Source of the DNA: a plasmid
Sequence record: NZ_CP040393.1
Strand: one strand, 5' to 3'
DNA: 64,000 bases
In this document: piece by piece, positions 13,349 to 50,446 of the stretch
Layout of the letters: the number at the start of each line of letters is the position of its first letter
How positions within the stretch are numbered: position 1 is the stretch's first letter
Program-made: the position numbers and the translations under genes
The notes under the pieces: model-generated
Seen by the model: only the letters and a program-made list of their open reading frames with translations
The model's database searches: none
What the model was told of the DNA's origin: nothing

Positions 13349-13551
13349 ACCGTTATGCAACGAACACTCTTGTGCTTATCACGCTGGCTCTGCTCGCTTC
13401 ACTGATGCTAATGGTCAGCGCCGCAAAGGGCGAGGCTCTTCAGACCGGGCTGAACTTACTCAGACCGGTCTGTTTCAGTACTCCAGGCCGGACAGAGGCC
13501 AGATTTTTATCGAACCATTCACCGACCGGGCAAAATCATGCAAATAAATAA
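13345..13551 (+). CDS. Small hydrophobic protein (68 aa) at the trbD position
   Basis: MNRYATNTLVLITLALLASLMLMVSAAKGEA... Overlapping start/stop with its neighbours. Confidence 0.35.
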   Translation: MNRYATNTLVLITLALLASLMLMVSAAKGEALQTGLNLLRPVCFSTPGRTEARFLSNHSPTGQNHANK

Positions 13552-14428
13552 CTATGCAGAAATGACAATGAATATTAGTAAAAAGAGCCTCTTTGTATTA
13601 CTTACAGTTGCAGGACTCATTCTTGCCCTGATAGCTGCCTTTCTTTCAATTTATACCGTAAATGAAGGAGAACGAGGCATTGTGCTTCGGAATGGCAGGG
13701 TGGTGACGGTTGCCGGGCCGGGTATGGGTCTCAAAATACCTTTCATTGAAAGCGTGGAGAAAATTACAGTTCGCAACGAAGCGATGCTTTACAGGGGGCT
13801 GAGTGCATACAGCAGTGACCAGCAACCCGCCCAGATGACCGTTTCTGTTAACTTCCACATCCCGCCTTCTGACGTTGAACGGGTTTATGCGGGATACAAA
13901 ACGGTTGAAGATATGAAAACTCGCCTTATTGCCCGCCAGATACCCACACAGCTTGAAAATGTTTTTGGACAATATACGGCTATCAGTGCAGTACAGAACC
14001 GCACCCGTCTTGTTCTGGATGTCCAGAATGCGCTACGCAAGTCTGTTGATGGTCCGGTAGTTATCGATACCGTCCAGATCGAGAATATCGATTTTTCTGA
14101 TGCTTATGAAAAATCCATCGAAGACCGAATGAAAGCCGAGGTGGCTATTGCGACCCGCAGGCAGAATCTTGAAACGGAAAAGATTCAGGCGCAAATAACG
14201 GTAACCAAGGCACAGGCTACAGCTGACAGCAAACTGGCTGCTGCAAAGGCTGATTCTGAATCTATTCGACTGCGTGGTAGCGCAGAAGCCGAAGCGATCC
14301 GGGCGAAAGGGGAGGCGCTGAAAGATAATCCGTCTCTTGTCAGCCTGACCACCGCCGAACGCTGGGATGGAAAATTACCCGCCTCTATGGTTCCGGGAGG
14401 CAGCGTTCCCTTCATTTCTGTTAAGTAG
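13538..14428 (+). CDS. SPFH / band-7 (HflC/prohibitin-like) membrane protein embedded in the tra operon. Possible start at 13565 (MTMNISKK).
   Basis: N-terminal TM (LFVLLTVAGLILALIAAFLSIY) then TVNEGERGIVLRNGRVV...IPFIE...an AEA-repeat helix...TTAERWDGKLPASMVPGGSVPFISVK. This is the classic SPFH domain plus its C-terminal ERWDG motif. It is not present in the F tra operon. Confidence 0.8.
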   Translation: MQINNYAEMTMNISKKSLFVLLTVAGLILALIAAFLSIYTVNEGERGIVLRNGRVVTVAGPGMGLKIPFIESVEKITVRNEAMLYRGLSAYSSDQQPAQMTVSVNFHIPPSDVERVYAGYKTVEDMKTRLIARQIPTQLENVFGQYTAISAVQNRTRLVLDVQNALRKSVDGPVVIDTVQIENIDFSDAYEKSIEDRMKAEVAIATRRQNLETEKIQAQITVTKAQATADSKLAAAKADSESIRLRGSAEAEAIRAKGEALKDNPSLVSLTTAERWDGKLPASMVPGGSVPFISVK

Positions 14429-18354: not shown

Positions 18355-18986
18355 CGCTATCCCGCAGACTGGTGGCCGTGCTCATCCTGACACTGTCCGC
18401 CAGTGCCGGGGCGAAAGATCTCGGCACCTGGGGGAATGTTTTTGAGCCGGCAGAACAGGACATGCTGGTCTTTATCCGGAACCGCCTGAAATCAATGGAG
18501 CAGAGTGGTGAACTGGATAAACTCAAAAACGAGGCCATTGAGCGCGTTAAACGCAACGCGGTCAGGCCACCCCCGGTGGCGGGTCTGACTCCCGCCCGTC
18601 AGTACCGCACCTTTAGTTTTGACCCCACCTTCACCGTCAACGAAACCATCACCGATATGAAGGGCAACATCATTGCCCGCAAGGGTGACAAGGTGAATCC
18701 GCTCGACCGTGTGCCCTACAGCCAGACGCTGTACTTCATCGACGGCGACAACCGTGATGAAGTGGCATGGATGAAAAAGCAGCTGCCCGGCGCCGGTGAT
18801 TTTAAGGTCATTCTGGTGAAGGGAAACATCAAGGAAACCAGCGATGCGCTTGATGAGCGCATTTATTTCGATCAGGCCGGCGTGCTGACAACGAAGTTTG
18901 GTTTTGAACACACGCCGGTGCGGATCACCCGCGATAACCGGGTACTGAAGGTGGAGGAAATACCCGTTACAGGAGCCAAAAAATGA
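18351..18986 (+). CDS. traW: TraW, pilus assembly protein
   Basis: 211 aa with a signal peptide. AKDLGTWGNVFEPAEQDMLVFIRNRLKSM matches F TraW ADLGTWGKTFEPDERDML. Confidence 0.85.
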   Translation: MTLSRRLVAVLILTLSASAGAKDLGTWGNVFEPAEQDMLVFIRNRLKSMEQSGELDKLKNEAIERVKRNAVRPPPVAGLTPARQYRTFSFDPTFTVNETITDMKGNIIARKGDKVNPLDRVPYSQTLYFIDGDNRDEVAWMKKQLPGAGDFKVILVKGNIKETSDALDERIYFDQAGVLTTKFGFEHTPVRITRDNRVLKVEEIPVTGAKK

Positions 18987-19345: not shown

Positions 19346-19354
19346 GACCAGCTA

Positions 19355-19496
19355 TGCGCCTGATGAATGCATCTACTTCGATCAGGCCGGTGTCCTGACC
19401 ACGAAATACGAGTTGGAGCACACCCCGGTGCGTATCACCCGTGACGGGCGTGTCCTTAAGGTAGATGAAATACTTTTACCGGAGGTAGCTAAATGA
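19355..19496 (+). repeat. Diverged duplicate of the traW 3' end (encodes ...DECIYFDQAGVLTTKYELEHTPVRITRDGRVLKVDEILLPEVAK)
   Basis: Compare the traW C-terminus DERIYFDQAGVLTTKFGFEHTPVRITRDNRVLKVEEIPVTGAKK (18861-18986). About 75% nucleotide identity. Each copy is followed by ATGA and a paralogous small membrane-protein gene. Confidence 0.8.
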
Positions 19497-23216: not shown

Positions 23217-23825
23217 ATGAAAAAAATACTCTTCCGGGCGCTGCTGGCCAGCAGCCTGGTAATTTGCCTGTCCGCCGCCGCGAGTGAACAGGCCGGTGTG
23301 TCCGCGAATGATCGGGCCTGGATGAAACAACAGCAGGATGCTTTGCAGGCCTTTAAAGAGAGTCTGAAAGACCCGTCGCTGTCGTTGCCGCCCGCGCAGC
23401 AGGATCGCGTCACCCGCCTGCAGCAGGGGATCGCAAAAGACCAGCCTGATACAGAGAAGAAAACGTTTCCAGCCATCTACTTTGTCAGCCTGGGACTGCC
23501 CCGCGAAGGCCTTCTGCCGATGCTGCAGGACGCGCATCGCTACGGCATACCCGCGACGATTCGCGGGCTTCTTAACAACGATTTGCGGCAGACGGCAAAC
23601 GCCATGTTTCAGCTGACCAAAGAGGATAAAAACATCGGCGTGCAGGTCGACCCGACGTTGTTCACCGATTACCATATCACCGCGATTCCGGCGCTGGTTG
23701 TGAACTGTCCGGGCCATTCCGATGTGATTCGCGGCAGTCTGCCGCTTAAACAGGCGCTGGAAAAAGTGGCCGGGCACGGCGACTGTGCAGCCACCGCGCG
23801 CCGGTTGCTGGAGGCATCCCGATGA
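23217..23825 (+). CDS. trbC: TrbC, periplasmic pilus assembly protein
   Basis: ...IYFVSLGLPREGLLPMLQDAHRYGIPATIRGLLNNDLRQTANAMFQLTKEDKNIGVQVDPTLFTDYHITAIPALVV...GSLPLKQALEKVAGHGDCAATARRLL matches F TrbC (LYFVSFSIPEEGLKRMLGETRHFGIPATLRGMVNNDLKTTAEAV...GDCRQVAHDLL). Confidence 0.9.
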   Translation: MKKILFRALLASSLVICLSAAASEQAGVSANDRAWMKQQQDALQAFKESLKDPSLSLPPAQQDRVTRLQQGIAKDQPDTEKKTFPAIYFVSLGLPREGLLPMLQDAHRYGIPATIRGLLNNDLRQTANAMFQLTKEDKNIGVQVDPTLFTDYHITAIPALVVNCPGHSDVIRGSLPLKQALEKVAGHGDCAATARRLLEASR

Positions 23826-25666
23826 AGCGATTCATTATTCCTGCGGCGCTGCTGTTTGCCGGCGGCGCGCTCGCCGATGCAAACAGTGATGCGTTTAATG
23901 CCGGCGCAGGTTTTGGCAAGGGCAATTCGTCACAGGGCACGTCATCGCTCAGCAATCCCGGCGCAGTGACAGGAAGCATTCCCGGCTATACAAGCAGTCC
24001 GCCCGAAAGTGGCTATTACGGGGGTGTCACCGGGGGAGACGGCGGGCTGAGTGACAAAGGGCAGCAGGCACTACAGAACAACGATGCCGGACAGACTGTT
24101 ATTGATTCCGGGACGAAAAACCCGTCACCGGTTATTGATCCGGATGCACCTTATATCACCATCGGAAAGGGTGCCGAAAGTACCGCCGGCAGCGTTCTGG
24201 ACGGAACCGGTTCGCAGTGCACATCAACAACGGTATCCAAATCGACCTTTGAAAACTACACCTGCGACAGGGATGTGGCGGTGATCCAGACCTGTGGCCG
24301 CACGGCATCCATTACCGGCTCATATCAGGATAATTACACGTATAACACCGTCACTATCGATTCGGATAACCTGGATGTCAGTAGCTATCAGGTCAACTGG
24401 CCCATGCCTGCGGGCACCGTTTACTCCGCGAGCATGACCTACACCTTCAGAAAAGACCAGGTGCACAGTAATGGCCTGCTGTATCTGAATATCACCGCAC
24501 TCGGTCAGTTTATGACCATGTATGACAACGCAGGCTCTTACAATATTCCCGGAGGTCAGACGTTCACGCAGGGCCAGAATCTGACCATTACCTTTGGCAA
24601 CCATGATAATAACAAAGACGTCATCCCGGCGGCATGGACACAGGGAAGGCCTTATCAGATATATCATTTTGTCATCACCATTGTATTTCGTACCGGCACC
24701 CGCGTGTGGGTGCCGCAGACGACCTGGTCAGAAAGCTGCGGTTTTGACAAAACGAAAGCGCTTTCCCGCGCGGGGAGTGTCTGTACGGACCCGGGCGGGA
24801 CAAGGACGATTACGGTGGATGGCAAGCAGTACAGTCAGACCAGCAGCTGCTGGGCGTATACCGATTCGTATGTGACGGCCACCGACTCAAAAGGCAACTG
24901 CGCGTCGCTGATGAGTGACCCGGCCTGCACGCTTTCCGGCCATACCTGTACCACCACAGAATCCGGCGTCTGCACTCACCAGTCGGAAACGTACCAGTGC
25001 CAGAAAACGTATTCCTCCAGTGGTCTGGTCTGCGGGGGCCAGTATTTCTGTAAGACCGGGGACTGCAGCGATACGGACGGTACCGGTGACAGTGGTTTTG
25101 ATACGGCGGTCGCCAAACTTGCGGGTCTTGCCTCTGCGGGGGACGACATTGTTAAAGACCAGGTCAACGTTAAGGCATTTACGGGCCAGGCCATGAGCTG
25201 CCGCAAGGCATTTGCCGGGTTTTCCAACTGCTGCAAGGATTCCGGATGGGGTTCCGATGCCGGGCTGGCCTCCTGTAACAGTGACGAGATGGCGCTGGGT
25301 AAAGCGAAGGCCAAAAAAGTCACGGTCAGTGTGGGTGACCGCTGTGATCACCAGGTCCTCGGTGTGTGCGTCCAGAAAAGTCAGGTGTACTGCGTTTTCG
25401 GTGGAAAACTGGCGCGCATCATTCAGGAGCAGGGGCGTCGTGATCAGCTGGGTGTCAGTTTCGGCAGCGGAGACAGCCCCAACTGCAGCGGTATCACGGT
25501 GCCACAGCTGCAGAGTATCAATTTTGACCTGATCAACTTCTCCGACTTCTACTCTGACCTGATAAACAACCAGAAAATACCGGACTCCGGTGTGATGGTT
25601 CAGCAAATCAAGGACAAAATCGCCGCCCAGGTACAGCAGCAACAGAGCAGCGGAGGGGCAAAATGA
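23822..25666 (+). CDS. traN: TraN, outer-membrane mating-pair stabilisation protein
   Basis: 614 aa against F TraN 602 aa. Signal peptide; Cys-rich C-terminal half (CxxC/CC clusters); synteny. Confidence 0.9.
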   Translation: MKRFIIPAALLFAGGALADANSDAFNAGAGFGKGNSSQGTSSLSNPGAVTGSIPGYTSSPPESGYYGGVTGGDGGLSDKGQQALQNNDAGQTVIDSGTKNPSPVIDPDAPYITIGKGAESTAGSVLDGTGSQCTSTTVSKSTFENYTCDRDVAVIQTCGRTASITGSYQDNYTYNTVTIDSDNLDVSSYQVNWPMPAGTVYSASMTYTFRKDQVHSNGLLYLNITALGQFMTMYDNAGSYNIPGGQTFTQGQNLTITFGNHDNNKDVIPAAWTQGRPYQIYHFVITIVFRTGTRVWVPQTTWSESCGFDKTKALSRAGSVCTDPGGTRTITVDGKQYSQTSSCWAYTDSYVTATDSKGNCASLMSDPACTLSGHTCTTTESGVCTHQSETYQCQKTYSSSGLVCGGQYFCKTGDCSDTDGTGDSGFDTAVAKLAGLASAGDDIVKDQVNVKAFTGQAMSCRKAFAGFSNCCKDSGWGSDAGLASCNSDEMALGKAKAKKVTVSVGDRCDHQVLGVCVQKSQVYCVFGGKLARIIQEQGRRDQLGVSFGSGDSPNCSGITVPQLQSINFDLINFSDFYSDLINNQKIPDSGVMVQQIKDKIAAQVQQQQSSGGAK

Positions 25667-28041: not shown

Positions 28042-28442
28042 AAGCAAAAATCCTTAACCGGGTGGAACAGTGTTATGACGCGCTCTGCCTAACCTGGTTA
28101 TCCGTCCGGCAGTACATAAAGAAATGGTGCATTGCCTCCTTTTTCATTCTTGTCGCACTGCTTGTGGCCGATTACGAATATGAAAACTTCGCCTGCCATC
28201 ATTTACAGGCGTATATCACCGGCGACCCCTCACTGACCGGCAGCGAACGCTTTGCACTCAGGGCACTGCTTTTTTACCCGTCTTATTTGTTCAGATCGTT
28301 TATGTGCGGTGCTTACGTGGTTTTCGTCATGACTTTACTCTGCTTCGTATTCTTCTATGGCAGCAGGGAGCGTATGCAGAAACGCACACTGACGGCGCAG
28401 AAATCGAGTACAGACACAACACCGGAGGTGGCTGATGTTTAA
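28038..28442 (+). CDS. Membrane protein (134 aa) at the trbF position
   Basis: Two TM helices. Overlapping starts/stops with its neighbours and traH. Confidence 0.35.
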   Translation: MKAKILNRVEQCYDALCLTWLSVRQYIKKWCIASFFILVALLVADYEYENFACHHLQAYITGDPSLTGSERFALRALLFYPSYLFRSFMCGAYVVFVMTLLCFVFFYGSRERMQKRTLTAQKSSTDTTPEVADV

Positions 28443-29799
28443 ACCCCTCCTGACTGCTGCCCTGGTCTTTATGGCCGGGATGGCCTCACTTCCCGCCCGG
28501 GCGGATGTGAACGGGGATCTGAACGGGTTCTTTGGCAGCCTCGGTTACAGCGGCAACGTGACACAGGCTCAGGCGTGGCAGGGACAGGCCGCCGGATACT
28601 TCACCGGCGGCTCGGTCTACCTGCGCAATCCGGTCAAGAACGTCCAGCTTATCTCGATGCAGGTGCCGTCACTGAATGCCGGTTGTGGCGGTATTGATGC
28701 CTATCTCGGGGCATTTTCCATGATAAACGGCGAGGAAATTCAGCGCTTCGTTAAACAAATCATGAGTAACGCTACCGGATACGCCTTCGATCTTGCCCTG
28801 CAGACAATGGTGCCGGAACTGAAGCAGGCGAAAGACTTCCTGCAGAAGCTGGCCAGTGATGTGAACTCAGCAAACATGAGTTCCTGTCAGGCCGCGCAGG
28901 GCATCATCGGCGGACTGTGGCCGGTAACGCAGGTGTCCCAGCAGAAAATCTGTCAGGACATTGCCGGCGAAAGCAATCTCTTCTCGGACTGGGCAGCGTC
29001 CCGGCAGGGCTGCACCGTTGGCGGCCAGAGCGACAGCGTGACCAGCCGGGCAGGGGACAGCCAGAAAGACCAGGTGCTGAAAAACAAAAACCTCATCTGG
29101 GATGCACTCAGTCGTAACCATCTCTTCGACAGTAACCGGGAGCTGAAGGAGCTGGTCATGAGTACCGTCGGCTCCATCATCTTCAACAATGCCGGGCAGG
29201 TGACCATTCTGACTCCGCTGGTTGATAACCGTGACCTTATCAAGGTGCTGATGCGGGGCGGTTCAGCGAAAGTGTACGGCTGCGATGAGGCAACGCTGTG
29301 CCTTGGTCCGGTGGTGAAGGATGTCACCATCGACGAAGGTAACGGACTGGTCACGCTGGTCAAAAACCTGATGCTGTCCATGCAGTCGAAACTGGTGGAT
29401 GACACCGCGCTGACCGACCAGGAAAAGGGATTCGTAAACACCACCTCCGTGCCAGTGCTCAAGTACCTCACTAACGCCCAGAGCATGGGGCAGAGCGCCA
29501 CCTACCTGATTCAGGTCAGTGACTTCATTGCTCAGGACCTGATGATTCAGTACCTGCAGGAACTGGTCAAACAGGCTTCGCTGTCGATGGCCGGGAAAAA
29601 CTGGCCGGAAGAGGCCGCCTCAAAACTGCGCGATAACGTCATCCATGCCCAGGGGCTTCTGGCCGACATGAAGCTGCAGTCTGCCGCAGACCAGAACGCG
29701 CTGGACGGCATCGACCGCAATATGCAGTACCTGCAGCAGCAGGTATCCACGATTGTTTCCGGCTCATACCAGAGCAACTATCACTGGGGGAATCCCTGA
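28435..29799 (+). CDS. traH: TraH, pilus assembly protein
   Basis: 454 aa against F TraH 458 aa. Signal peptide; conserved ...SLNAGCGGIDAYLGAFS... region. Confidence 0.9.
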   Translation: MFKPLLTAALVFMAGMASLPARADVNGDLNGFFGSLGYSGNVTQAQAWQGQAAGYFTGGSVYLRNPVKNVQLISMQVPSLNAGCGGIDAYLGAFSMINGEEIQRFVKQIMSNATGYAFDLALQTMVPELKQAKDFLQKLASDVNSANMSSCQAAQGIIGGLWPVTQVSQQKICQDIAGESNLFSDWAASRQGCTVGGQSDSVTSRAGDSQKDQVLKNKNLIWDALSRNHLFDSNRELKELVMSTVGSIIFNNAGQVTILTPLVDNRDLIKVLMRGGSAKVYGCDEATLCLGPVVKDVTIDEGNGLVTLVKNLMLSMQSKLVDDTALTDQEKGFVNTTSVPVLKYLTNAQSMGQSATYLIQVSDFIAQDLMIQYLQELVKQASLSMAGKNWPEEAASKLRDNVIHAQGLLADMKLQSAADQNALDGIDRNMQYLQQQVSTIVSGSYQSNYHWGNP

Positions 29800-32700
29800 T
29801 GCTTGAAGTCTATACCATATACGGCGGCGGGATGTGGAAATCGGCCTTTGACGCCGTTGTCGGCATCCTCGGTACCAGCACCTGGGGGACGCTGCTGCGC
29901 ATTGTCAGTACCTTCTCCGTGCTGGGTATCGTGGCGTCGTTTGTCAAAAGCCGCAATCCGATGGTGTTTATACAGTGGCTGGCGATGTTTACGCTGATAA
30001 CCTCCGTCCTCATCGTCCCCAAAAGGTCAGTGCAGATTATCGACATCACGGATCCGGCAACGGTCTGGGTGACCGATAACGTCCCGGTGGGGCTGGCCGG
30101 GATGGCCTCCCTGTCGACCAGTATCGGTTTTCATGTGGCACAGCTCTATGACTACATGATTGCGCGCCCGGACTCGGTGACCTACACCAAAACCGGAATG
30201 CTGTTTGGCTCCGGGATTGTGGCGGAAAGCAGTGACATGCAGACGCAGAACCCGGAGCTGGCGCAGATGCTGCCGGATTATGTCCGAAAACTGCGTGATT
30301 GGCGACATTCTGCTGAACCCACAAGTACACGGTGAACCAGCTGCTCAACACCACCGACCCGCTGGGGCTGATCACCAGTAACCCCAGCCCGTTGCGCGGC
30401 ATTTTCAAAACGACCAGTGACACGCGTGAATTTCTGACCTGCCAGCAGGCGGCCGCGCAAATCCAGACGCTGGCGGGGCAGGATGCGCAGGTCAGCAGCC
30501 CGACATTTGCCTGGCTGACACAGAAAATCTTCGGCAACCGCCTGAACGGCGCCACGCTGCTGGCCAACTCAATGGGCGAAAGCTATGGCTTTTTCTATGC
30601 CGGTGGAATGAGTGCCGCGCAGATCATGAAAAACAAACGTGACCAACAGCGCGATACAGCAGGGCATCCGGGGCTTTGCTGCCCGGTCTTCTGACCACGG
30701 CCAACCTGCTGAACCTCGCGACCGAGAACGCGGCCACCAAGCAACGTATCAGCTGGGCGGCAGGCAGCACGCTGGCCACCCGGCAACTGCCGTTCCTGCA
30801 GTCCCTGATGATGCTGATTCTGGTCTGTCTGTTCCCGCTGGTCATCGCGCTTGCGGCGGCCAACCACTCCATCTTTGGCCTGAACACGCTGAAGATTTAT
30901 ATCTGCGGGTTCCTTTACTTCCAGATGTGGCCGGTGATGTTTGCCATCCTGAACTATGCCGCCACGTTCTGGCTGCAGACAAAAACAGGGGGGACACCCC
31001 TTGTGCTGTCCAACAAGGATACGGTGGCGCTGCAGCATTCGGATGTGGCTAATCTGGCCGGTTACTGCGCCATGTCGATTCCGGTGCTGTCCTTTTTCCT
31101 GACCAAAGGTGCGGCGGCAATCGGCTCTCAGGTGGCCGGCAGCGTGATGAGTTCGATGGCATTCGGCTCAGCCGGCGTGGCCTCCACCACGGCCGACGGC
31201 AACTGGTCGTTTAACAACATGTCGATGGATAACGTCAACCAGAACAAGATGGACACCAACCTGATGCAGCGGCAGGGCCAGCAGACCTGGCAGGCGGATA
31301 ATGGCTCGAGTCATACGGTCACGGCGAGCGGCCAGAATGTCATAGATGGCTCCGGCGCGATGTCGAACTTGCCGGTGAACATGCGCCTCAGTCAGCTGGC
31401 CAGCAGTGGATTCCAGGAGCAGGCCCGGTTGTCGCAGGTGCAGGCGCAATCCTCGCTGGATGGCTATAACCACAGTGTCACCAGTGGCTGGTCTCAGCTG
31501 CAACAGGTCGCCAGCCAGAGCGGCAGTACCGACAGCCTGAATCAGGGTTCGGATAACAGCCAGACACTGAATGCTTCACGCGGTGCCACTATGATGATGT
31601 CTGCTGCCGAGAGCTATGCGAAAGCGAACAACATTTCGACACAGGAAGCTTATAACGAGCTTTTAAATAAATCTGTTGAAGGAAGTGCCAATGCAGGTAC
31701 AAGTTTCAAAATTAATTCAGGTGATCAAGCGCTTGGTAAAGTTGGTAAATGGGTTACCGGTGCAAGTGTTGAAGGTCATGCGGGGCTTGAAGTAAAAGGC
31801 ACCACAGGTAGTTCACATGGTACTCAAGATACGCATTCAGGCTCGAACGATATGCGGCATGATAAAAATAGCCAAATGGTTAATGATTTCAAACAAGGTA
31901 TGGATATGGTGACCAGCAGCCGCATCAGCGACTCCGCCAGCCATTCCGATAGTGCCGGAACCAGCAAAGTTCAGCAGTTTGCTGCCACGCTTAATGATGC
32001 GCAGAGCCAGTACCATCAGTTCACTACCAGTTCCACCAACAGCAATGAATTCAGCCGCATGGCCACACTCGCTCAGAATGAGAGTGCCAGCCTTGATACG
32101 AATTACACCCAGGAGTTTGTGGACTGGGCATCCAACAAGTACGGGGATAAAGCTCAGGCTATGCTGACCAGCGCTCCCACAGCACGCGAGGCAGCAATGG
32201 AGTTTGTTAACGAGCGTCTCAAACCTGAAATCATGGGGGATTATCAGCAGGGGCGCGCCGACCTGAAAGGTGGCAGTGAACATGCCGCGTTCAGTGGTGA
32301 GCATACTGTTAATCAGTCAGTGAGCCATATTTCGGGACAACAGGATAATAACGGGACAATGACTCACTCCACTCAAAACCATCACAAACAGACGAATGGT
32401 GAGACCAGTTATTCAACCTCACTTTCTCAGAGTAATCATGCTGATGAGAGTCCTGCAGTACATAATCTCAGGGGGAACCGGGTACCGGGAGATGATATGC
32501 AGAATGACTTCAGGGAAAACCAGAATCGCCTGCAGGGGCAGAGTTTCGGCGAACAAAGCGATGTTCCAAGGAGGGTTGCAGAAGAAAGATCTGCTAACGA
32601 GCAAAATATCAACAAATCTGCTGGGGAAATTGAGCAAAATCGATCCACTGTTCAGGCATCCAGTGATATATTAAAAGGAGAACATTCGAACGCTCAGGGG

Positions 32701-32814
32701 AAATTTGCAGAAGGTTATGAAACCGAAAAAGGGCATCAAAAACTAATCCCCCAAAAAGCTGATGAAGAAGATGTTAACAAAAGGCTTAACGATATGCGCA
32801 AGCGTCAAGGCTAA
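29799..32814 (+). pseudogene. traG: traG (mating-pair stabilisation / pilus assembly) split across four frames by four +1 frameshifts at about 30287-30290, 30318-30320, 30629-30633 and 30684-30690
   Basis: Pieces 29799..30335 (frame 3), 30289..30318 (frame 1: NCVIGDILLN matches F NCVMGDIYLN), 30320..about 30628 (frame 2: HKYTVNQLL...SPLRG... matches F HKYTLEDLM...SPLRG), about 30630..30686 (frame 3: NVTNSAIQQGIRGFAAR matches F NVTMNALKEGITSNAAR) and 30688..32814 (frame 1: LLTTANLLNLATENAATKQR... matches F LVSLATTSSMEKQR...) together match F TraG end to end. Confidence 0.8.
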
Positions 32815-33398
32815 TGGAGATAAACATGTTGGTCACTCAGGCTGATGTAAATAACGATCTTCGTATGTTGATTCAGAATATCGAAGACGATAGCAAGCCC
32901 TTAGTTAACCCCAAAAGTGCCTTAAAAATTAGTATGGTTTGGCCATTAAGTTGTGTGCTTTGCTATGTGGTTGCAATGCTATTTATTGCACTAAAATTCG
33001 AGCCATACATTGATCATTTTGATAATCAAGTGACTGTTTTAAAGGAATATGGTTTTGTTTTCATTTTTGGGGGTATGAGTATTCTCTTTTCGTTATTCAT
33101 TGGTGCTGCCCTTTATGGTCCAGCGCTTGCATACCTTACATTAAGTAAAGAAGTCAGAGAAAGTTCCATCATAATTAGCCAGCTTAAAAAACTGGTGATA
33201 AAACTTGGACGCTTCTTCTTTCTTTCTAATTTGGGCTTGGCGATTATATCTCTTTGGATTCCTGAGCTTCTTGTCGCTGCCCCTTTTCTCATTATGTTCT
33301 CTTTCCTGATTATGCAAGGCATAGTGAGTGCTGAAGCTACTCGTTATGGAGTTGCACCGGTTATTGGAAAACTGACAAAGCTTGCGAAGAAAATTTAA
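32814..33398 (+). CDS. traS: TraS-like inner-membrane entry-exclusion protein (position-based)
   Basis: 194 aa, very hydrophobic, markedly AT-rich compared with its neighbours (typical of the hypervariable traS). Lies between traG and traT. Confidence 0.5.
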   Translation: MEINMLVTQADVNNDLRMLIQNIEDDSKPLVNPKSALKISMVWPLSCVLCYVVAMLFIALKFEPYIDHFDNQVTVLKEYGFVFIFGGMSILFSLFIGAALYGPALAYLTLSKEVRESSIIISQLKKLVIKLGRFFFLSNLGLAIISLWIPELLVAAPFLIMFSFLIMQGIVSAEATRYGVAPVIGKLTKLAKKI

Positions 33399-33532
33399 TT
33401 TTAAAGAAAAGTCATCGGCAATCGATGACTTTTCATTTTTCACAACATATCACCGAACTAAATTTAACATTCTATATCTGAATTGTTGAACCCTCCCCCC
33501 AAACTATCCGTATTTAAAATAAGGAAATATGA

Positions 33533-34243
33533 ATGAAACTGAATAAAATTGCAGTTTACGGCCTCGCTTTGTCTTTATTTACCATCACTGGCTGCGGAGC
33601 AATGAGTACCGCTGTGAAAAAGCGTAATCTCGACGTTAAAACACAGATGAGCGAAACCATCTGGCTGGAGCCGGCATCAGACAAAACGGTATTCGTTCAG
33701 GTACGAAATACCTCTGATAAAGATATGTCCGGACTGCAGTCGCAAATTGCTTCGGAATTAACCGCGAAAGGTTATCGCGTGACGTCTTCGCCTGATGCCG
33801 CATATTTCTGGGTGCAGGCGAATGTCCTTAAGGCGGACAAGATGGATTTGCGTCAGACTCAGGGCTTCCTCAGCTCCGGCTATGAGGGGGGTGCCACCGC
33901 TGCTGCGCTGGGAGCCGGTATCACCGCCTACAACTCCAGCTCTGCCGGCGCGACACTGGGTGTGGGGCTGGCCGCCGACGCAATGGTGGAGGACGTGAAC
34001 TACACGATGGTGACCGATCTGCAGATTTCCGGGCGCAGCAAAGCCACCGTCACGACCGATAATGTCGCCGCGCTCAGGCAGGGGACTTCCGGCATGAAGG
34101 TCCAGACCAGCACAGAGCAGGGCAACCGCACGAAATACCAGACCCGTGTGGTATCCAGCGCCAACAAGGTGAACCTCAAATTCGACGAGGCGAAACCTGT
34201 TCTGGAAGCCCAGCTGGCCAAATCCATCGCCGGTATCATGTAA
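33533..34243 (+). CDS. traT: TraT, surface-exclusion outer-membrane lipoprotein
   Basis: ...[52 protein letters not shown]... is near-identical to F TraT ([50 protein letters not shown]). Confidence 0.95.
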
Positions 34244-34643: not shown

Positions 34644-37217
34644 ATGAGCTTTAAAGGAAAAAATCTTACTCAGGGCGGTCAGATGACCGCCTATCGCTGG
34701 CGCATGTTCATTCAGGTCAACAACTGGATTGGGTTCTGGATACTTGTCCTGTTTGTCATTATCGCGGGCGCTTTATTCCTGTCCTTCACGTCGCAGGAGA
34801 TGATCGATAACGGCAGCTGGTACTGGTTTGCCCGTCTCAATGAAAGCTTTATCGACCTGATGCCCGCCGGCAAGGGAAAGTTTTACGACATTCATTACTA
34901 CTATGCGGCGACTGATACCACCCTGACACTGAAAATGACGCTGCGGCAGATGCTGACGGACCCGTACATGCAGTTTATGGGGGAGCAACTCGCCGGCCAT
35001 TTACAGTCTTCCGCACTGGTTGCTGGCGGGATAAGTGTGGCCGCGTTCCTTGCGGTGGGATGGTACGTCGCCCGGATTGGTAAGCGGGAAAGTGAGGACG
35101 AATTTATCTCCGGCATGCAGCTGACGGACAAACCCGCCGAAGTGAATAAGCTGCTGCGTAAAAACGGTGAAATGTCGGATCTGCGCGTGGGTGACCTGCA
35201 TATGGTCAAAAACGCCGAGGTGATGAATTTCCTGATCCACGGCACCATCGGTGTGGGTAAATCCACCCTCATCCGCTGGCTGCTGGATTACATCCGTAAG
35301 CGTGGCGATCGCGCCATCATCTACGACTCCGGCTGTACGTTCACGGAAACCCACTACGACCCGAAAACCGATTTCATCCTGAACCCGCATGACGAGCGCT
35401 GTGCCAACTGGCAGCTGTGGGATGAATGCGTGGATGTGGTTGACTATGAGAACTTTGCCGCAAGCCTTATCCCGGTCGAAGGCGAGTCAGACCCCTTCTG
35501 GGTGTCCAGTTCCCGGACCATCGCCGCTGACCTGGCTATCCGCATGTCAGCTGACCCTGATCGCAGCATCGAGAAGTTCCTGAAAACGCTGCTGTCGCTC
35601 AGTATGCAGAACCTGCGCGAGTATCTGGCCAATACACCCTCTGCAAACCTCGTTGAAGAGAAAATCGAGAAGACGGCCATCTCCATCCGTTCTGTGGTCA
35701 CCAACTACGCCAAATCCCTGCGCTTTCTGCAGGGGCTGGACGATGGCACCCGGCCAAAATTCACCATCCGTAACTGGATGACCAGCGGGCAGTACAGCAA
35801 CAGCTGGTTGTTTATTTCAGCCCAGGCGCGTCACCGTAAAAGTGTCCGCTCGCTGATTTCCATGTGGCTCTCGATGGCCACACTCTTCCTGCAGAGTATG
35901 GGGGAAAACCCCGACCGCCGCGTGTGGTTCATCATCGATGAAAAACCCGGTCTGCAGCGGATACCTGAGTTTACAGAGACGCTGGCTGAAGGGCGTAAAT
36001 TCGGCGGCTGTTTTGTCATCGGTATCCAGAACATGCCGCAGCTTATCAACGTCTATGGTCGCGAGCTGGCCAAATCCATCTTCGATCTGCTGAACACCCG
36101 CATGTACGGGCGCTCCCCCAGTGCGGAAGTCGCGAAGATAGTGGAAGAGGAACTGGGCAAACAGCGGCGCAAAGAGGCGAAAGAGCAGAACAGTTACGGG
36201 ATGGACGCCGTGCGTGATGGCGTGTCGCTGGGCAAGGATAAGGTCCATGAGCCGGTGGTGGACTACGAAGATGTCATGAAGCTGCCGAACCTGAAATTTT
36301 ATGTCCGGTTGCCCGGTGAATACCCGGTGGTGGTCCTGCCGCTTAAGTACCGTCGGTTAAGGAAACTGAATCCGGGGCTGATAGAGCGGAATATCCGGGA
36401 TGCGCTCAGTCCGGAACTGGAAAAAGTGATCCGGGAGAACGAGCGTGCCGCTGCGATGGCAGGGATGCGTTTTCCGACCGGTGATGATGAGCCGGTAGAA
36501 GGAAACACTGCAACGTCAGAAGAGAAACCGGCAGAACCGGCAGCGAAAACCACCTCTGAGGCGGGCGCGCACACCGCAAAACAGCAACCTGCGGCCAGCA
36601 GGACAGCCACTGAACGTACCGCTTCGTCGGGTGAATCCACCCCGGCGCCGGAGACCGTCACCCCGGTTTGGCAGCCGGTCCGTCAGCCAGAGAAGCCCCG
36701 GCCCGAAACGGAACGCAGCAATGTCGTGCCGTTACGCACTGCCGGCGCAAATCTGCCGCAAACGCCCCCTGTGGAGCCGGCAATATCAGCAGTCAGACAG
36801 CCCCCGGAACCGCCGGTTACGACCGCACGCACCCCGGAAGATGCAATGAGCCTGCTCAGTAAAGTCACCGGTAAATCACGGCCACAGGACGCCACCACAC
36901 CGGCCGGCGCGCTCGATTTGCTTAACCGCGCGCGTCTGAAACCGGCCACTGCCACGACAGAGGATGCGCAGAACGCTGAGGCCGGTGGAGAGGCACAGGA
37001 ACTGGCGATGAATGTCACCCAGCTGGCCGATGGCGGGCTGGAGCTGACCACGGCCGGCCACGCTCCCTCCCCGGAACAGAAGGCGAAAGACGATAACGCT
37101 GCCAACCGGCGTATGGCGCGGGAAGAGGAGAACATTATCCGCCACCGCCATCACGACGATCCGGGCTATGACCAGGCCGATTTTGAGCGCTATGACGACG
37201 GAGAACCCGAATTATGA
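34644..37217 (+). CDS. traD: TraD, type IV coupling protein, with an extended Pro/Thr/Ala/Glu-rich C-terminal region and an acidic tail. The tracked ORF starts at 34569; the start is set by the F match.
   Basis: MSFKGKNLTQGGQMTAYRWRMFIQV matches F [25 protein letters not shown]. Walker A LIHGTIGVGKST. ...VWFIIDEKPGL...EGRKFGGCFVIGIQNM. C-terminus ...DQADFERYDDGEPEL. Confidence 0.9.
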   Translation: MSFKGKNLTQGGQMTAYRWRMFIQVNNWIGFWILVLFVIIAGALFLSFTSQEMIDNGSWYWFARLNESFIDLMPAGKGKFYDIHYYYAATDTTLTLKMTLRQMLTDPYMQFMGEQLAGHLQSSALVAGGISVAAFLAVGWYVARIGKRESEDEFISGMQLTDKPAEVNKLLRKNGEMSDLRVGDLHMVKNAEVMNFLIHGTIGVGKSTLIRWLLDYIRKRGDRAIIYDSGCTFTETHYDPKTDFILNPHDERCANWQLWDECVDVVDYENFAASLIPVEGESDPFWVSSSRTIAADLAIRMSADPDRSIEKFLKTLLSLSMQNLREYLANTPSANLVEEKIEKTAISIRSVVTNYAKSLRFLQGLDDGTRPKFTIRNWMTSGQYSNSWLFISAQARHRKSVRSLISMWLSMATLFLQSMGENPDRRVWFIIDEKPGLQRIPEFTETLAEGRKFGGCFVIGIQNMPQLINVYGRELAKSIFDLLNTRMYGRSPSAEVAKIVEEELGKQRRKEAKEQNSYGMDAVRDGVSLGKDKVHEPVVDYEDVMKLPNLKFYVRLPGEYPVVVLPLKYRRLRKLNPGLIERNIRDALSPELEKVIRENERAAAMAGMRFPTGDDEPVEGNTATSEEKPAEPAAKTTSEAGAHTAKQQPAASRTATERTASSGESTPAPETVTPVWQPVRQPEKPRPETERSNVVPLRTAGANLPQTPPVEPAISAVRQPPEPPVTTARTPEDAMSLLSKVTGKSRPQDATTPAGALDLLNRARLKPATATTEDAQNAEAGGEAQELAMNVTQLADGGLELTTAGHAPSPEQKAKDDNAANRRMAREEENIIRHRHHDDPGYDQADFERYDDGEPEL

Positions 37218-40200
37218 TGTCACCCGCACCGATTGTGTCCGCCGGCGAGGCGGCGGGCTATTACAGCAACAAGGATAACTATTACTTTCTCGGCCAGCTG
37301 GAAAGCGAGTGGCTGGGCGAGGGCGCGGGCCGGCTGGGTCTGGAAGGTAAAGTCCGCAGCGACCAGCTGACGGCGGTACTCGAAGGACGTCTGCCGGACG
37401 GATCCCGTCTGGGAAAGGAAATTAACGGCAACCACACCCACCGGCCGGGGCATGACCTGACCTTCTCCGCCCCGAAGAGTGTCTCCATCCTGGCCCTGAT
37501 TGGCGGGGATAAAGCCCTGCTGGAAGCCCATCAGCATGCCGTCCGGGTTGCCGCCGGTTACGTGGAGAAACTCATTTCTGCCCGTGAGACGGTCGACGGC
37601 AAAACCTCCATCGTCCACACCGGCAAAATGGTCGCCGCGCTCTACACGCACGACACGTCCCGCAATCTCGATCCGCAACTGCACACCCATATGCTGGTTG
37701 CCAACATGACGGAGCTGAACGGTAAATGGAAAGCACTGGCTACCGATACCATTCACAATGCCGGTTTCATCGAGACGGTCATGAAGATGCAGGTGACGCT
37801 GGGGAAACTGTACCGCAGGGCGCTGCGCGAGCGTGTGGAAGAACTGGGGCACTCAGTGGAGGAAGTGGGGCCGCACGGCATGTGGGAAATCAGCGGCGTA
37901 CCGTCAGAGGTCCGCGAGGAGTATTCCTCACGCGGTCGCGAAGTCCGGGGCGCGGTTGGAGCCGAAGCCACGCTGAAAAGCCTGGATATCGCGGCCAAAA
38001 ACACCCGGAAGGCGAAAGTCGACCCCTCCCGACTGCGCCTGATGGAGCGCTGGCAGACCCAGATGAAAGAGAAGGGATGGGACATGAAAGCCTATCAGGA
38101 GAGCGTGGTGCCCCGGACAGCGCCCGGCGGCAGTTCTGCACATCGCGCCCCTGAGCCGTCAGCCCCGCAAAAAACAATGGCCGGAAGCGACATGCCGGCA
38201 GCGCCGGAGCAGACGAAAGGGAAAGCACGTGACGACGCGCCCGCGCAGACCCGCTCCGGGGCGGAGGAAAAAACGGTCTCCCCCGTGACACCCTCACCCC
38301 GCACGGACGTGATTCAGCGCCGGGATGCAACGGTGCAGGAGGAGGCCGGGGCACGTCCTGAACCGGAGCCACGCGGCGGGAAAGAGGCGGAGCAGAAAAC
38401 AGCAGACAGTGACGGGAAAACACAGGCTGACCGGGCATTGTCTGACAACCAGCCTGACAGGGACGACGCCAGGCCGGAACCTGTGCCGGCTGAAAACCCG
38501 GTGATAACCGTGGCCGGTTCACCTGACGTCGCGCGCGAACAGGCGGAGCCGTCTGAACCGGCACAGCCCGGCGTGACGGAAAAGGCGGGCAGTCCGGTCA
38601 CGCATGCCGGCGTGGCCCCACTGTCGACGGGGAGCGGGCCTGCAGGAACACCGTCAGGCAGTCAGCCGGGCGGGCAAACGGCACCGGCCGGGGTTGCCTC
38701 TGTGGCCGCTGCGCCGGCGGAAGTGACAGATGCCGTCCGTATGGCCGTCTCACAGCTGAGCGACAGCAAAACCCGCTTCACCTGGGGGGAACTGCTTCTG
38801 AGTACGGCGGAATTCAGCGACAAAATCCCCCCGGTTTCTGAAATGAAAGCCGCGCTGGACGGGGCGCTGCGTGAAGGCGTTATCGTGCCGCTGGATGCGG
38901 AAAAAGGGGTCTTCACATCGCGTATCCATCTGCTGGATGAACTGTCCATTCAGGCGCTGAGCCGGGAGCATCTCAGTGAAACCCGCGTCGTCAGCTTTCA
39001 GCGTCCCGCACAGTATGCGCCGGCGGCGCTGGAGGGGGTGGAAAAGGATGCGCTTGTCCTGATGAATGCCCCGAAAGGTGTGGCGGGAATACGGGAACTG
39101 ACGGAACAGCTTGCCGGCATTTCGGCGTCACATGGCCGGGAGGTGCAGGTGCTGGCCAGCTCAGCCGAACGCGCCGTGTCCCTCGCAAAATCGGACACCC
39201 TGCGGGAACACATCATGGGTCGCCAGCAGGTGCTGAGCGGGGATTTTCAGCTGCGGCCGCAGAGCACCCTGATTGTCGAGGGGGCTGAGCGGCTGAGCCT
39301 CAAGGAAACGCTGGTCCTGCTCGGTGAAGCACGGGACAAAAGCGCGCAGCTGGTTTTTCTCGACAGCGCGGGCCGCCAGGCGAACGGGAACGCCATGTCC
39401 GTGCTGGAGTCTGCTGGCGTGGTGCGCAGCCGGCGGGCTGAACCGTCGCCGGGACTGGAAGCGGAAGTGGTCAGCATCCGGGACAAGCGCGACCGCTACA
39501 GCGCCCTGGCTGACCGCTTTGCTGAGCTGAGTGCCGGGACAGAGCCGGTAACCGCCATTGTGGTCGGACAGCGTGAACAGAAGCACCTGACCGGACTTAT
39601 CCGCGATGCGCTGCAGAATGCCGGTCAGCTTGAACGTGACGGTGTCACGGTGGAGGCGCGCACGCCGGTCTGGCTGGACAGCAAAACCCGCCGGATGAGT
39701 GGTTCCTACCGCGCCGGACAGGTTCTGGAAGACCGCACTGAGCGCGAAACGCGGCATTTCGTGATTGACCGGGTGCATGAGGACACGCGGGTTTTGTCCC
39801 TGATTGACAGTGACGGGGTGCTGGTCCGCATGAAAATTGCCGATCTGACCGCAGACTGGCGACTCTACCAGCGCGAGCATCTGCCTGTCGCCGCCGGTGA
39901 CAGACTGATTGCGCTGGCAGCGGATCGCGATGCGGGTCTGAAATCAAAAGACCGGCTTACCGTCACGCAGGCCGCTCAGGAAGGGATAACGGTGGAGCGG
40001 GACGGCAAAGTGCTGACCCTGCCGGCAGACAGGCCACTCTATCTCACCCACGGGTATGTTGCGGGACCCGGCAACCGCGACAATGACAGCGGTGTGGTGC
40101 TGGCCGCGCTGAACTCCCGCGATATCACCGCGCAGACCATGAATTCCCTGGCGCAGTCAGGACACCGCGCCGAAATCTTCACGGCAGAGCCGGAAGACAA

Positions 40201-42994
40201 GGCGGAAGCACGCCTGCAGCGTATGCGGACAGAGAATTCCCCCGTGCAGCTGGTCCGCAAACTCAGTGGCCGGGACCAGCTGGACAGTGCCCTGACGACC
40301 CTGCACGACAGTGTGAAAACGGACGTCACGGTGGCCGTTGAGCGCGCCATCGCGGACCAGCAGTCGGTGACGTTCGACGCGTTACATCTGGCAGAGCGGG
40401 CCGCTGAGTTTTATCCCGATATCGCCGGGGTTGACCGGGAAATCAGTCATATGGTCAAAAAGGGTGACCTCATCCGTGTGCCTGGTCAGGCGACGCCCTT
40501 ACTGGTTGCCCGAGCGACCTGGGAAATGGAAAAAGCCATCATCCGTGTCATCACGGAAGGGAAAAATACCCGGGAGCCGCTGATGGACAAAGTTGACCCT
40601 GCGCTGCTTGCCGGTCTGACGTCCGGGCAGAAAGGATCCGCGCTGCTGGTACTGGGTTCCCGTGACCAGTTCACGGGGATTCAGGGCTATGCGGGGGTGG
40701 GTAAAACCACCCAGGTCAGCGCGGTAAAAGCGGCCATCGATACCCTGCCTGCGTCTGACCGGCCGCTGCTTTACGGACTGGCACCCACCCACCAGGCTGT
40801 CAGGGAGCTGAGGGATGTCGGGCTGGAGGCGCAGACCCTGAAATCCTGGCTGGTTGAGCACGAGCAGATGGTCGCGGCCGGCGAGAAACCTGACTACCGC
40901 AACAGGGTGTTTCTTATCGATGAATCCTCGATGCTGGGTAACCAGGATACAGCGGCCGCCTATCTGGCCATCCAGGCCGGCGGCGGGCGGGGCGTTTCAA
41001 TGGGCGACACCGACCAGTTTGAGGCGATTGAATCCGGTGCGCCGTTCCGGCTGGCCCAGGAGCGCAGCCCGATGGATGTGGCCATCATGAAACAGATTGT
41101 CCGCCAGAAGGAGGTCAATCTGCGGGACGCGGTGCACGACATCATTGATAACCGCATCGATGCCGCGCTGCAGCGTCTGGAGAAACAGCCGGCGGACAAT
41201 GTGGAACGCCTTGACCCGTCCTGGAAAGCGCCCGCATCAGGCCTGGCGGAGTCTGCCGACCCGGTTGCCGCCATTGTCGATGACTGGATAAGCCGCACGC
41301 CGGCGGCGCGCGAAAGGACGCTGGTCATCGCGCAGCTGAACGAGGACAGGGAGAGCATCAATAACGGCATTTATGCCGCGCTGGAGGCACGCGGTGAGCT
41401 GGGGAGCGAGAAAATCAGGGTGCCGGTGCTGGAGAAAATCCGGCACACCCGCCATGAGTTCAACAAACTCCAGGCGTGGCAGCCCGGTATGGTGGTGAAG
41501 CGGGGCGATGCCTATCAGGATGTGGTGGCCGTGGATAAAAACGGCTCGCTGATCTCCGTCAGAAACGAGAGCGGCAGGCTCGCCTGGTACTCCCCGCGAG
41601 AACTGCTGACCGGGGATGTGGAGCTCTTTAACCGCCGCGAGCGGGAGCTGAGCGCCGGCACCGTGGTGCGCTTTACCGCCACCGACCGCAACAGAGGGCA
41701 GAATGCCAACCAGAAATTTACGGTTGAGCAGGTCCGGCCGGACGGGGAAGTGGTGCTGAAAGGCCGGGACGGACAGAAAACCATTAACCCGGCAGACGTG
41801 CGCTCCGAGCAGCATATTGATTATGCCTGGGCAATCACCGGCTACGGTTCACAGGGGGCCGGTGAGGACGCCGTTATTTCCCTGGAGGGGACAAAAGGCG
41901 GGCGGGCATACATGGCCACCCGGCGCGCGTTCTATATCTCTGTCTCCCGTGCCAAAAAACACGTTCAGGTCTATACCGACGGTCTGGAGAAATGGGTGAA
42001 GGCCATCAAAAGGCAGGAGTTTGATTTCAAAACGGCGCATGATGCCCTGACGCCGGAGACAGAGCGCCGGCAGGCGAAGGTCATCTGGGCGATGGGGCAG
42101 CCGGTCGGGAAAACCGCAATCGGGCGGGCATGGGCAAAACACGAGGCGCTGGGCAGTCACAGCCTGACCGCCCGCGTTATTCCGTCCACGAAACGCTTTC
42201 CGGAGCCGTCGCTGGCGCTACCATTGTACGATAACAACGGGAAAAGTGCCGGTCTGGCGCTGGTTTCGCTGGTAAACGGCGACAACGGACGTCTGAGGCG
42301 GGGTGCCATGCGCATGGTGGCCACGCAGGGTGCCAGCGGCGCGGTTGTGCAGCGAAGCCGCAGCGGTAACACCCGTGTGGTCAGTACGGTCGACGCCGCG
42401 CTGAAGGCGGTCCGGGAGCACCCGGAGGACGGGGTGGTCTGGCAGACCGGCGCGGAGAAACCCTCTCCCTGGATGATTAAGGTGAGCCGGGGCACCGAGA
42501 GTGCAGAGGAACAGAAAAGGGCACTGTCGGTACCGGGCGAATCAGAAATCAGGGTGCCGGATTTGAAAGCGGACACCACCAGTGATGAACCGGAAAAACG
42601 GGCTGTTCAACAGGTCGTAAGGGAAACGCAGGATATCCGGGATACTGAAGCGCTGATGGCGAAACGTGTTCCTGATGCAGACCTTCAGGGAGAGAAACCA
42701 GGCACCCTGTCTGGCGTCAAACCAGACGGGAATATTCTGGGTGAAATCATTGACGAGAGACTGCAGCGGCAACAGGAAAGAGATAATGTTGTCAGCAGGA
42801 TACCTGCGCCGTCAGACCTGCAGATGGCCAGAGAAGCAGCCGAACACGCGGTATCAGCGCGCGTGGCGAATGAAATTGCTGAGCGGGGACAGCAGCAGGA
42901 GGTACGCATTCCGGGCGACACAGTGGAGAAAGGACGCACTGTTGAGCATCAGGAACCTGCGCATACCCGCACCATACAACAAAAAGAACGTTAA
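37214..42994 (+). CDS. traI: TraI relaxase-helicase (MOB-F), 1926 aa, with a ~200-aa low-complexity insertion after the relaxase domain
   Basis: MMSPAPIVSAGEAAGYYSNKDNYY matches F MMSIAQVRSAGSAGNYYTDKDNYY. HxH motif HTHMLVANM. Helicase Walker A GYAGVGKTTQ. Insert at aa 296-505 (QESVVPRTAPGG...AAPAEV). Confidence 0.95.
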   Translation: MMSPAPIVSAGEAAGYYSNKDNYYFLGQLESEWLGEGAGRLGLEGKVRSDQLTAVLEGRLPDGSRLGKEINGNHTHRPGHDLTFSAPKSVSILALIGGDKALLEAHQHAVRVAAGYVEKLISARETVDGKTSIVHTGKMVAALYTHDTSRNLDPQLHTHMLVANMTELNGKWKALATDTIHNAGFIETVMKMQVTLGKLYRRALRERVEELGHSVEEVGPHGMWEISGVPSEVREEYSSRGREVRGAVGAEATLKSLDIAAKNTRKAKVDPSRLRLMERWQTQMKEKGWDMKAYQESVVPRTAPGGSSAHRAPEPSAPQKTMAGSDMPAAPEQTKGKARDDAPAQTRSGAEEKTVSPVTPSPRTDVIQRRDATVQEEAGARPEPEPRGGKEAEQKTADSDGKTQADRALSDNQPDRDDARPEPVPAENPVITVAGSPDVAREQAEPSEPAQPGVTEKAGSPVTHAGVAPLSTGSGPAGTPSGSQPGGQTAPAGVASVAAAPAEVTDAVRMAVSQLSDSKTRFTWGELLLSTAEFSDKIPPVSEMKAALDGALREGVIVPLDAEKGVFTSRIHLLDELSIQALSREHLSETRVVSFQRPAQYAPAALEGVEKDALVLMNAPKGVAGIRELTEQLAGISASHGREVQVLASSAERAVSLAKSDTLREHIMGRQQVLSGDFQLRPQSTLIVEGAERLSLKETLVLLGEARDKSAQLVFLDSAGRQANGNAMSVLESAGVVRSRRAEPSPGLEAEVVSIRDKRDRYSALADRFAELSAGTEPVTAIVVGQREQKHLTGLIRDALQNAGQLERDGVTVEARTPVWLDSKTRRMSGSYRAGQVLEDRTERETRHFVIDRVHEDTRVLSLIDSDGVLVRMKIADLTADWRLYQREHLPVAAGDRLIALAADRDAGLKSKDRLTVTQAAQEGITVERDGKVLTLPADRPLYLTHGYVAGPGNRDNDSGVVLAALNSRDITAQTMNSLAQSGHRAEIFTAEPEDKAEARLQRMRTENSPVQLVRKLSGRDQLDSALTTLHDSVKTDVTVAVERAIADQQSVTFDALHLAERAAEFYPDIAGVDREISHMVKKGDLIRVPGQATPLLVARATWEMEKAIIRVITEGKNTREPLMDKVDPALLAGLTSGQKGSALLVLGSRDQFTGIQGYAGVGKTTQVSAVKAAIDTLPASDRPLLYGLAPTHQAVRELRDVGLEAQTLKSWLVEHEQMVAAGEKPDYRNRVFLIDESSMLGNQDTAAAYLAIQAGGGRGVSMGDTDQFEAIESGAPFRLAQERSPMDVAIMKQIVRQKEVNLRDAVHDIIDNRIDAALQRLEKQPADNVERLDPSWKAPASGLAESADPVAAIVDDWISRTPAARERTLVIAQLNEDRESINNGIYAALEARGELGSEKIRVPVLEKIRHTRHEFNKLQAWQPGMVVKRGDAYQDVVAVDKNGSLISVRNESGRLAWYSPRELLTGDVELFNRRERELSAGTVVRFTATDRNRGQNANQKFTVEQVRPDGEVVLKGRDGQKTINPADVRSEQHIDYAWAITGYGSQGAGEDAVISLEGTKGGRAYMATRRAFYISVSRAKKHVQVYTDGLEKWVKAIKRQEFDFKTAHDALTPETERRQAKVIWAMGQPVGKTAIGRAWAKHEALGSHSLTARVIPSTKRFPEPSLALPLYDNNGKSAGLALVSLVNGDNGRLRRGAMRMVATQGASGAVVQRSRSGNTRVVSTVDAALKAVREHPEDGVVWQTGAEKPSPWMIKVSRGTESAEEQKRALSVPGESEIRVPDLKADTTSDEPEKRAVQQVVRETQDIRDTEALMAKRVPDADLQGEKPGTLSGVKPDGNILGEIIDERLQRQQERDNVVSRIPAPSDLQMAREAAEHAVSARVANEIAERGQQQEVRIPGDTVEKGRTVEHQEPAHTRTIQQKER

Positions 42995-48576: not shown

Positions 48577-49296
48577 TTATTTTGCCCCTGATGTCTCTGT
48601 AGATTTGATTTTTTCGATCGCAATAATATTGTCTGACATCGCTTCATTGAGCACTTCAACTGCCGTGCTGGCATCGCGATTCTTTATCGACATATAGACC
48701 TTGATATGGGCTTCCACACTTTCAAGGGTAATACCCAGCGTACGGTTAAGCTCTTCAAGATAGTAGTAATAGATGTCTTTAATCGAGCTCATCACGTTGT
48801 AGAACACGCTGTTGTGTGATGCCCTGACAATCGCCAGATGGAACTCGTAGTCCGCTTCCGAGTATTTTTTATAATCGCCTTTGTGGATCAACATGTTGTT
48901 CAGTGCTTCTTCGAGCTGGCGAATGTCATCATCGGTAGCATGTGTGACGGCGAGCTCCACGCATTTGAACTCCACAGTCTGACGAAAAATCATCATATCG
49001 TGAAACTCTTCGCGGCTGAGGTGCATGATTGGACGAGGATCGTTACTCAACATCTGTGGGATGAAGTTTTCGCTCACGTAGCTGCCGCTACCCTGACGTG
49101 TCACCACAATCCCCAGGTCACGAAAACGCTGCACCGCGCTACGAACGCTGACCCGGCTGACGTTAAATGAGGTGGTCAGCTCGGCTTCTGAGGGCAAACG
49201 GCTACCCGGAGCCCAACTGCCATCCAGCAATTTTCCGCTTATCTGATCATAAACTTCATTTACAACATTCTGTTTTTGAATGGATTTTATGCTCAA
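48577..49296 (-). CDS. GntR-family transcriptional regulator (FadR/FCD subfamily)
   Basis: N-terminal wHTH ...LPSEAELTTSFNVSRVSVRSAVQRFRDLGIVVTRQGSGSYV, then an all-helical FCD domain. Confidence 0.9.
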   Translation of the reverse strand: MSIKSIQKQNVVNEVYDQISGKLLDGSWAPGSRLPSEAELTTSFNVSRVSVRSAVQRFRDLGIVVTRQGSGSYVSENFIPQMLSNDPRPIMHLSREEFHDMMIFRQTVEFKCVELAVTHATDDDIRQLEEALNNMLIHKGDYKKYSEADYEFHLAIVRASHNSVFYNVMSSIKDIYYYYLEELNRTLGITLESVEAHIKVYMSIKNRDASTAVEVLNEAMSDNIIAIEKIKSTETSGAK

Positions 49297-49386
49297 GATG
49301 GGTATCCGTTAAGATGTCGCTGAAGTGATTTATTGTATAACAATTCACTTTTAAGAACAAAGCGCCCGGTCGGGCGCTTCTCACCG

Positions 49387-50430: not shown

Positions 50431-50446
50431 TTTGATGATGACCTCG

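Follow-up and report, generated by a model that had tools for sequence, protein, structure and literature searches.

The F-type conjugation gene traG, whose product acts in mating-pair stabilisation and pilus assembly, is represented by TraG of the F plasmid (NF010295/PRK13735, PF07916), which we take to be 938 aa long. The traG gene of CP040393, the 118,312-bp plasmid of Kosakonia radicincitans DSM 107547, resembles it in the end-to-end match of its repaired protein, in the presence of the TraG_N domain and in the order of the surrounding tra genes, but four single-nucleotide insertions divide its open reading frame (ORF) into three pieces, and the repaired protein, with 1003 aa, is longer than that of F. 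A gene broken in this way recalls the decayed tra regions of non-conjugative F-like plasmids, in which a key transfer gene is likewise unreadable as deposited. Such regions, however, carry deletions, IS insertions, stop codons and many substitutions over several genes, whereas here about 50 genes are intact and traG differs from its sister copy by the four inserted bases only. The locus also recalls the false frameshifted pseudogenes of long-read assemblies; the mimicry of pseudogenes by long-read indel errors is a recognised problem (PMC12007338). Here the likeness lies in single-nucleotide indels in a conserved gene that are missing from near-identical short-read assemblies, and in the PacBio RSII/HGAP3 origin of the record. 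False pseudogene errors are usually scattered and fall in longer homopolymers, whereas those in traG form one tight cluster in short runs of an Illumina-polished assembly, which speaks for a cause confined to that spot, for instance a contig end, junction or dip in coverage.

The analysis covered a 64,000-nt stretch of this plasmid, referred to here as the window, and the features of the traG region given below all lie on its + strand. The gene (29799–32814) stands at its place in the F-type MPF_F order traH-traG-(traS position)-traT-traD-traI. It is preceded by an intact traH (28435–29799, 454 aa), whose stop overlaps the traG start, and followed by a 190-aa ORF at the traS position (32826–33398, no family hit) and by an intact traT (33533–34243, 236 aa). 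Its homologues are annotated as traG, and in CP040393 it is not one uninterrupted ORF, being read instead as five frame segments in three ORF pieces. The N-terminal piece of 178 aa (29799–30335) begins with 162 native TraG residues and ends in 16 that are out of frame, the middle piece of 120 aa (30332–30694) holds native residues about 174–279, and the C-terminal piece of 712 aa, with a TTG start (30676–32814), carries native TraG from about aa 300 to 1003. When pENT01 TraG was compared with the window by tblastn, homology ran through frames 3, (1), 2, 3 and 1, the same path that an earlier note on this DNA had described.

Alignment of 30150–30800 with the traG genes of plasmids pBDA62-3, pENT01 and pKS2022 (about 90–92% identity) revealed exactly four 1-nt insertions, all inside 412 bp, and no further length difference separates this part of the gene from six independent intact comparators. 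The first insertion, an extra C at 30284–30285 in codon 163 (GTCCGAAAAC where the intact form is GTCGAAAAC), moves the reading frame by +1. The second turns CC into CCC at 30318–30320 (codon 174), the third turns AA into AAA at 30635–30637 (codon 280, AAAAACAACG to AAAAACAAACG), and the fourth turns C into CC at 30695–30696 (codon 300, CTGACACGG to CTGACCACGG). The earlier note, which had reported four clustered +1 shifts in about 400 bp, was right as to their number and clustering and had correctly placed one of them in the CCC at 30318–30320, but its other switch points have to be moved. The AAAA at 30287–30290 is unchanged everywhere, the extra C forming a CC at 30284–30285 upstream of GAAAAC; the third change is not in the AAAAA at 30629–30633 but in the As that come after AAAAAC, at 30635–30637; and the fourth falls at 30695–30696 rather than at 30684–30690. 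Its assignment of three sites to homopolymer runs holds for site 2 and fails for the AAAA and AAAAA sites.

Deletion of bases 30285, 30320, 30637 and 30696 gives a traG ORF of 3012 nt and 1003 aa. The repaired protein scored 1271.6 bits against NF010295, the TraG equivalog (cutoff 600), over profile positions 1–921 of 922, and the PF07916 TraG_N domain spans its aa 3–453; in the unrepaired window the same domain was split between the 178-aa fragment (profile 1–166) and the 712-aa fragment (profile 302–459). Apart from the four 1-nt insertions, the traG of CP040393 is a normal F-type traG. Self-BLAST of the gene and tblastn of TraG, whose matches were confined to the traG locus, found no repeat and no second traG copy within the window by which misassembly or gene conversion might be explained.

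The 3′ part of traG and the ORF that follows it show a variation of another kind. TraG is 95–96% identical to its pENT01 counterpart in the N-terminal part and 82% in the C-terminal part, and GC content goes down to 35–43% in 31600–33500, which takes in the 3′ part of traG and the ORF at 32826–33398. The pENT01 counterpart of this 190-aa ORF found no match in the window. To judge from the sequence, these features suggest the pattern expected of a co-varying TraG/TraS-type entry-exclusion pair.

All four insertions are missing from six of six independent comparators with an intact gene, namely plasmids pBDA62-3, pENT01 and pKS2022, two Logan assemblies and one JGI metagenome contig (94% identity, intact at all four sites); the plasmids and the metagenome contig are the more distant of these relatives (90–94% identity). 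The Logan assemblies, SRR19200047 and SRR19200050, are short-read sister assemblies that were located by exact look-up of TraH. In both, traG is a single 1003-aa gene, and the DNA of the repaired traG is 100% identical to that of a Logan short-read assembly. Across 34.3 kb (window 5946–40243) the only indels relative to the Logan contigs are the four traG insertions, while the substitutions relative to SRR19200047 and SRR19200050 number 6 in 5946–7765, 0 in 7766–34783 (27.0 kb) and 130 in 34784–40243. The Logan and metagenome sequences were obtained from strains or samples other than DSM 107547, and so they reveal the ancestral sequence and not that of this strain itself.

Further searches were made for carriers of the insertions, using a pattern that would match sites 1 and 2 with or without the extra base. 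Among GTDB species representatives there was no match, and in JGI metagenomes only one relative was found, intact and of 94% identity. By exact-protein look-up the 178-aa truncated product is absent from all public assemblies. The TraI, TraD and DsbA-like proteins specific to the strain, looked up likewise, occur in the GenBank record alone or nowhere, and none of the four look-ups yielded a second assembly of DSM 107547. Once the four bases are removed, traG bears no signs of relaxed selection in the form of extra substitutions, stops or deletions.

The comparison with the Logan contigs also exposes a sharp recombination boundary near the 5′ end of traD, where 0 substitutions in 27 kb give way to 130 in 5.5 kb running into traI; on this comparison, the window and SRR19200047/50 have backbones that are otherwise identical but between which traD-traI was exchanged. 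The SRR19200050 contig breaks within traG (window 30945–31182), a few hundred bases downstream of the insertions, whereas SRR19200047 is continuous there, and the break may reflect a strain mixture or low coverage.

The rest of the window was examined with 57 proteins of pENT01 and an E. coli IncF plasmid. About 50 matched proteins read in a single frame at essentially full length, the exceptions being traG and a Tn3-family transposase, and a whole-window DNA comparison with pENT01 found no other uncompensated 1–2 nt indels in well-aligned coding sequence. As the earlier note had stated for the large tra genes, traI (1926 aa), traC (879 aa), traN, traH and the 712-aa C-terminal ORF of traG are all intact. 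A generally error-rich assembly was rejected as an explanation because there is no other indel in 34.3 kb and the other genes are intact. No second cluster of errors turned up in the window, which leaves the record without an independent sign of low quality at any other place.

The window has several further features. In the leading region there is a direct repeat (2464–2929 and 5458–5924, spacing about 2995 bp), with 300 nt at 99% and 75 nt at 87% identity, each copy lying just 5′ of, and reaching into the start of, an ORF of about 181 aa, and 2087–2160 pairs with 5279–5352 as a weaker repeat. Within the tra operon, a Band_7/SPFH (prohibitin-like) gene lies between traB and traV (13538–14428), a position held in pENT01 by unrelated small ORFs. 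The 3′ end of traW (18837–18963) is duplicated about 510 bp downstream (19347–19473, 78% identity), the second copy corresponding to TraW aa 162–204. TraN (traN, 23822–25666) is 60% identical to pENT01 TraN, whereas the flanking genes are 73–95% identical, which suggests that the allele of this mating-pair stabilisation adhesin has been replaced. The traI relaxase (37214–42994) has 1926 aa as against 1875 aa in pENT01, or about 51 extra residues.

Beyond the transfer region, the match of the Tn3-family transposase (55117–56541) ends at aa 461 of 995, and the gene is truncated rather than frameshifted. It adjoins both a sugar-acid module (48577–54252; GntR, idnD, MFS, SDR and enolase-like genes) and a recombinase gene (54350–54991), and this whole region has about 94% DNA identity with E. 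coli IncF plasmids. Cargo on the − strand (59053–61005 and 62365–63495) includes genes for a dCache methyl-accepting chemotaxis protein and a GGDEF diguanylate cyclase; the former has about 75% DNA identity with Cronobacter plasmid genes.

Relative to the intact gene, traG shows 4 insertions, 0 deletions and 0 substitutions. Each inserted base is a copy of its neighbour, and the runs before insertion were of 1, 2, 2 and 1 nt, whereas all ten runs of at least 4 nt in 30250–30750 are unaltered. The insertions fall as two close pairs (spacing 35 and 59 nt) in a stretch of 58–64% GC, and their net shift is +4, with no mutual compensation. Were four events scattered uniformly, they would be confined to 412 bp or less with a probability of 1.9e-5 over 27 kb and 5e-7 over 64 kb. 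Chance is far from accounting for such a cluster, and the earlier note was right in judging a uniform error process unlikely. As the insertions lie in runs of 1–2 nt and longer runs are spared, the pattern is unlike that of replication slippage or homopolymer miscalling, and with the long runs intact, both homopolymer slippage in vivo and errors of the 454, Ion or nanopore type were rejected. Single-base indels of natural origin tend to be deletions and to occur in long runs, while the errors of raw or single-pass PacBio reads are mainly single-base insertions, often repeating the adjacent base ('cognate extra'). By analogy with this general error profile, the type of change seen in traG would fit the PacBio platform.

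The history of the record is pertinent in this respect. K. radicincitans DSM 107547 is a blood isolate whose assembly was made with HGAP3 from one PacBio RSII SMRT cell, followed by circularisation of the replicons, trimming of redundant contig ends and rotation of the plasmid to parA (PMC7005327). Correction used Nextera XT/NextSeq reads, bwa 0.6.2 and VarScan, with a minimum coverage of 10 and a minimum variant frequency of 0.8, and the authors state a PacBio coverage of 110x, with Illumina correction and a concordance of QV60 (PMC7005327). The ends of HGAP contigs are of low quality, and circularised contigs keep small indels and need polishing (PMC4699355). A non-uniform error process is therefore on hand, in RSII/HGAP3 contigs with trimmed ends that were polished under strict Illumina thresholds. 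The window was recognised as this plasmid by exact matches to its proteins (TraC QEM94306, TraH QEM94324, relaxase QEM94328, RepA QEM94330). Only three accession numbers lie between those of TraH and the relaxase, where four genes stand, and from this numbering we infer that traG is probably without a protein entry and flagged as a pseudogene in the record.

We consider it likely that the four extra bases of traG are residual consensus errors in the deposited sequence and not mutations of the plasmid. What favours this reading is the combination of insertions unique to CP040393, no accompanying decay, clustering, the type of error and the history of the record. The errors would stem from a stretch of about 400 bp of poor long-read consensus, most plausibly where a contig had once ended or been joined into a circle, or where coverage was thin, and poor PacBio consensus may give rise to single-base insertions that repeat a neighbouring base, as in traG. 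The short-read step could have left them in place where one read spans both gaps of a close pair, as would most short reads that reach either of the two errors. By default, bwa aln allows one gap opening, so reads over paired errors would align poorly and the deletion calls could miss the 80% threshold. Another possibility is low Nextera coverage, as these libraries tend to under-cover stretches of high GC and this one has 58–64%. In either case the deletion calls would stay below the 80% or the 10x threshold. Against this reading, QV60 concordance, 110x coverage and Illumina correction should remove most indels, and survivors would need a special local cause of the kind that we infer here.

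The earlier note had set a genuine pseudogene against a localised artefact. The artefact is favoured, and the other alternative, in which traG is a genuine and very recent pseudogene in DSM 107547 and the plasmid lacks pili and mating-pair stabilisation and is transfer-defective unless helped, now appears unlikely. In its favour, the loss of conjugation genes is common on F-like plasmids, and the comparators are other strains that stand 130 substitutions apart in traD-traI. The record itself also appears, from its accession numbering, to treat the gene as a pseudogene, and the bases stand in a deposited sequence that was Illumina-corrected to QV60 (PMC7005327). Yet 0 substitutions in 27 kb separate the segment from the sister plasmid, as against four indels in 412 bp. 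That absence of substitutions makes the split from the Logan plasmid too recent for even one natural indel in 412 bp: at about 1e-4 substitutions per site or fewer, the natural indels expected there are well under 0.01. The first knockout would, moreover, leave no selection for three adjacent frameshifts, and the shifts do not compensate one another. All four changes are insertions in runs of 1–2 nt, with runs of 4–5 nt spared, the opposite of what natural indels favour; the disruption occurs in no other assembly; and about 50 other genes give no second sign of decay.

The same bases could be real in a different manner, having arisen together in DSM 107547 as a local burst of insertions over about 400 nt of traG that silenced conjugation in this blood isolate and spared the remainder of the plasmid, and to this we give little credence. 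That one mutational event produced all four, for example through error-prone repair synthesis over about 400 nt (a 'mutation shower'), seems very improbable. Tight clustering is what an event confined to one patch would lead one to expect, but the history of the record favours an artefact here too. We know of no polymerase or repair pathway that gives only +1 insertions without substitutions. Pol IV makes mainly −1 frameshifts and mutation showers consist mostly of substitutions, both signatures differing from the +1-only pattern. Finally, it is scarcely conceivable that programmed ribosomal frameshifting or transcriptional slippage lets traG be read through the shifts, since the continuity of homology through the frames is all that speaks for it, while four successive shifts would be needed, the sites are runs of 2–3 nt with no slippery heptamer, and all homologues, including the sister gene that is otherwise identical in DNA, are single-frame, with shift sites not conserved; on these sequence grounds programmed frameshifting, which the earlier note had already thought implausible, is excluded.

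The four-frameshift traG is real as the text of a record but is most likely no biological feature. If it is an artefact, the result serves chiefly as a warning about data quality: traG would be listed in CP040393 as a pseudogene by mistake, and the case would show that indel errors lying close together can outlast the polishing of a PacBio assembly with short reads. Were the insertions real, self-transfer of the plasmid would be lost and the +1 cluster would be an odd mutational signature. Should the bases be residual consensus errors, as we suggest, the real plasmid would have an intact traG and a complete transfer region, and mobility scoring from the record could miscall a probably conjugative F-type plasmid of clinical Kosakonia as transfer-defective.
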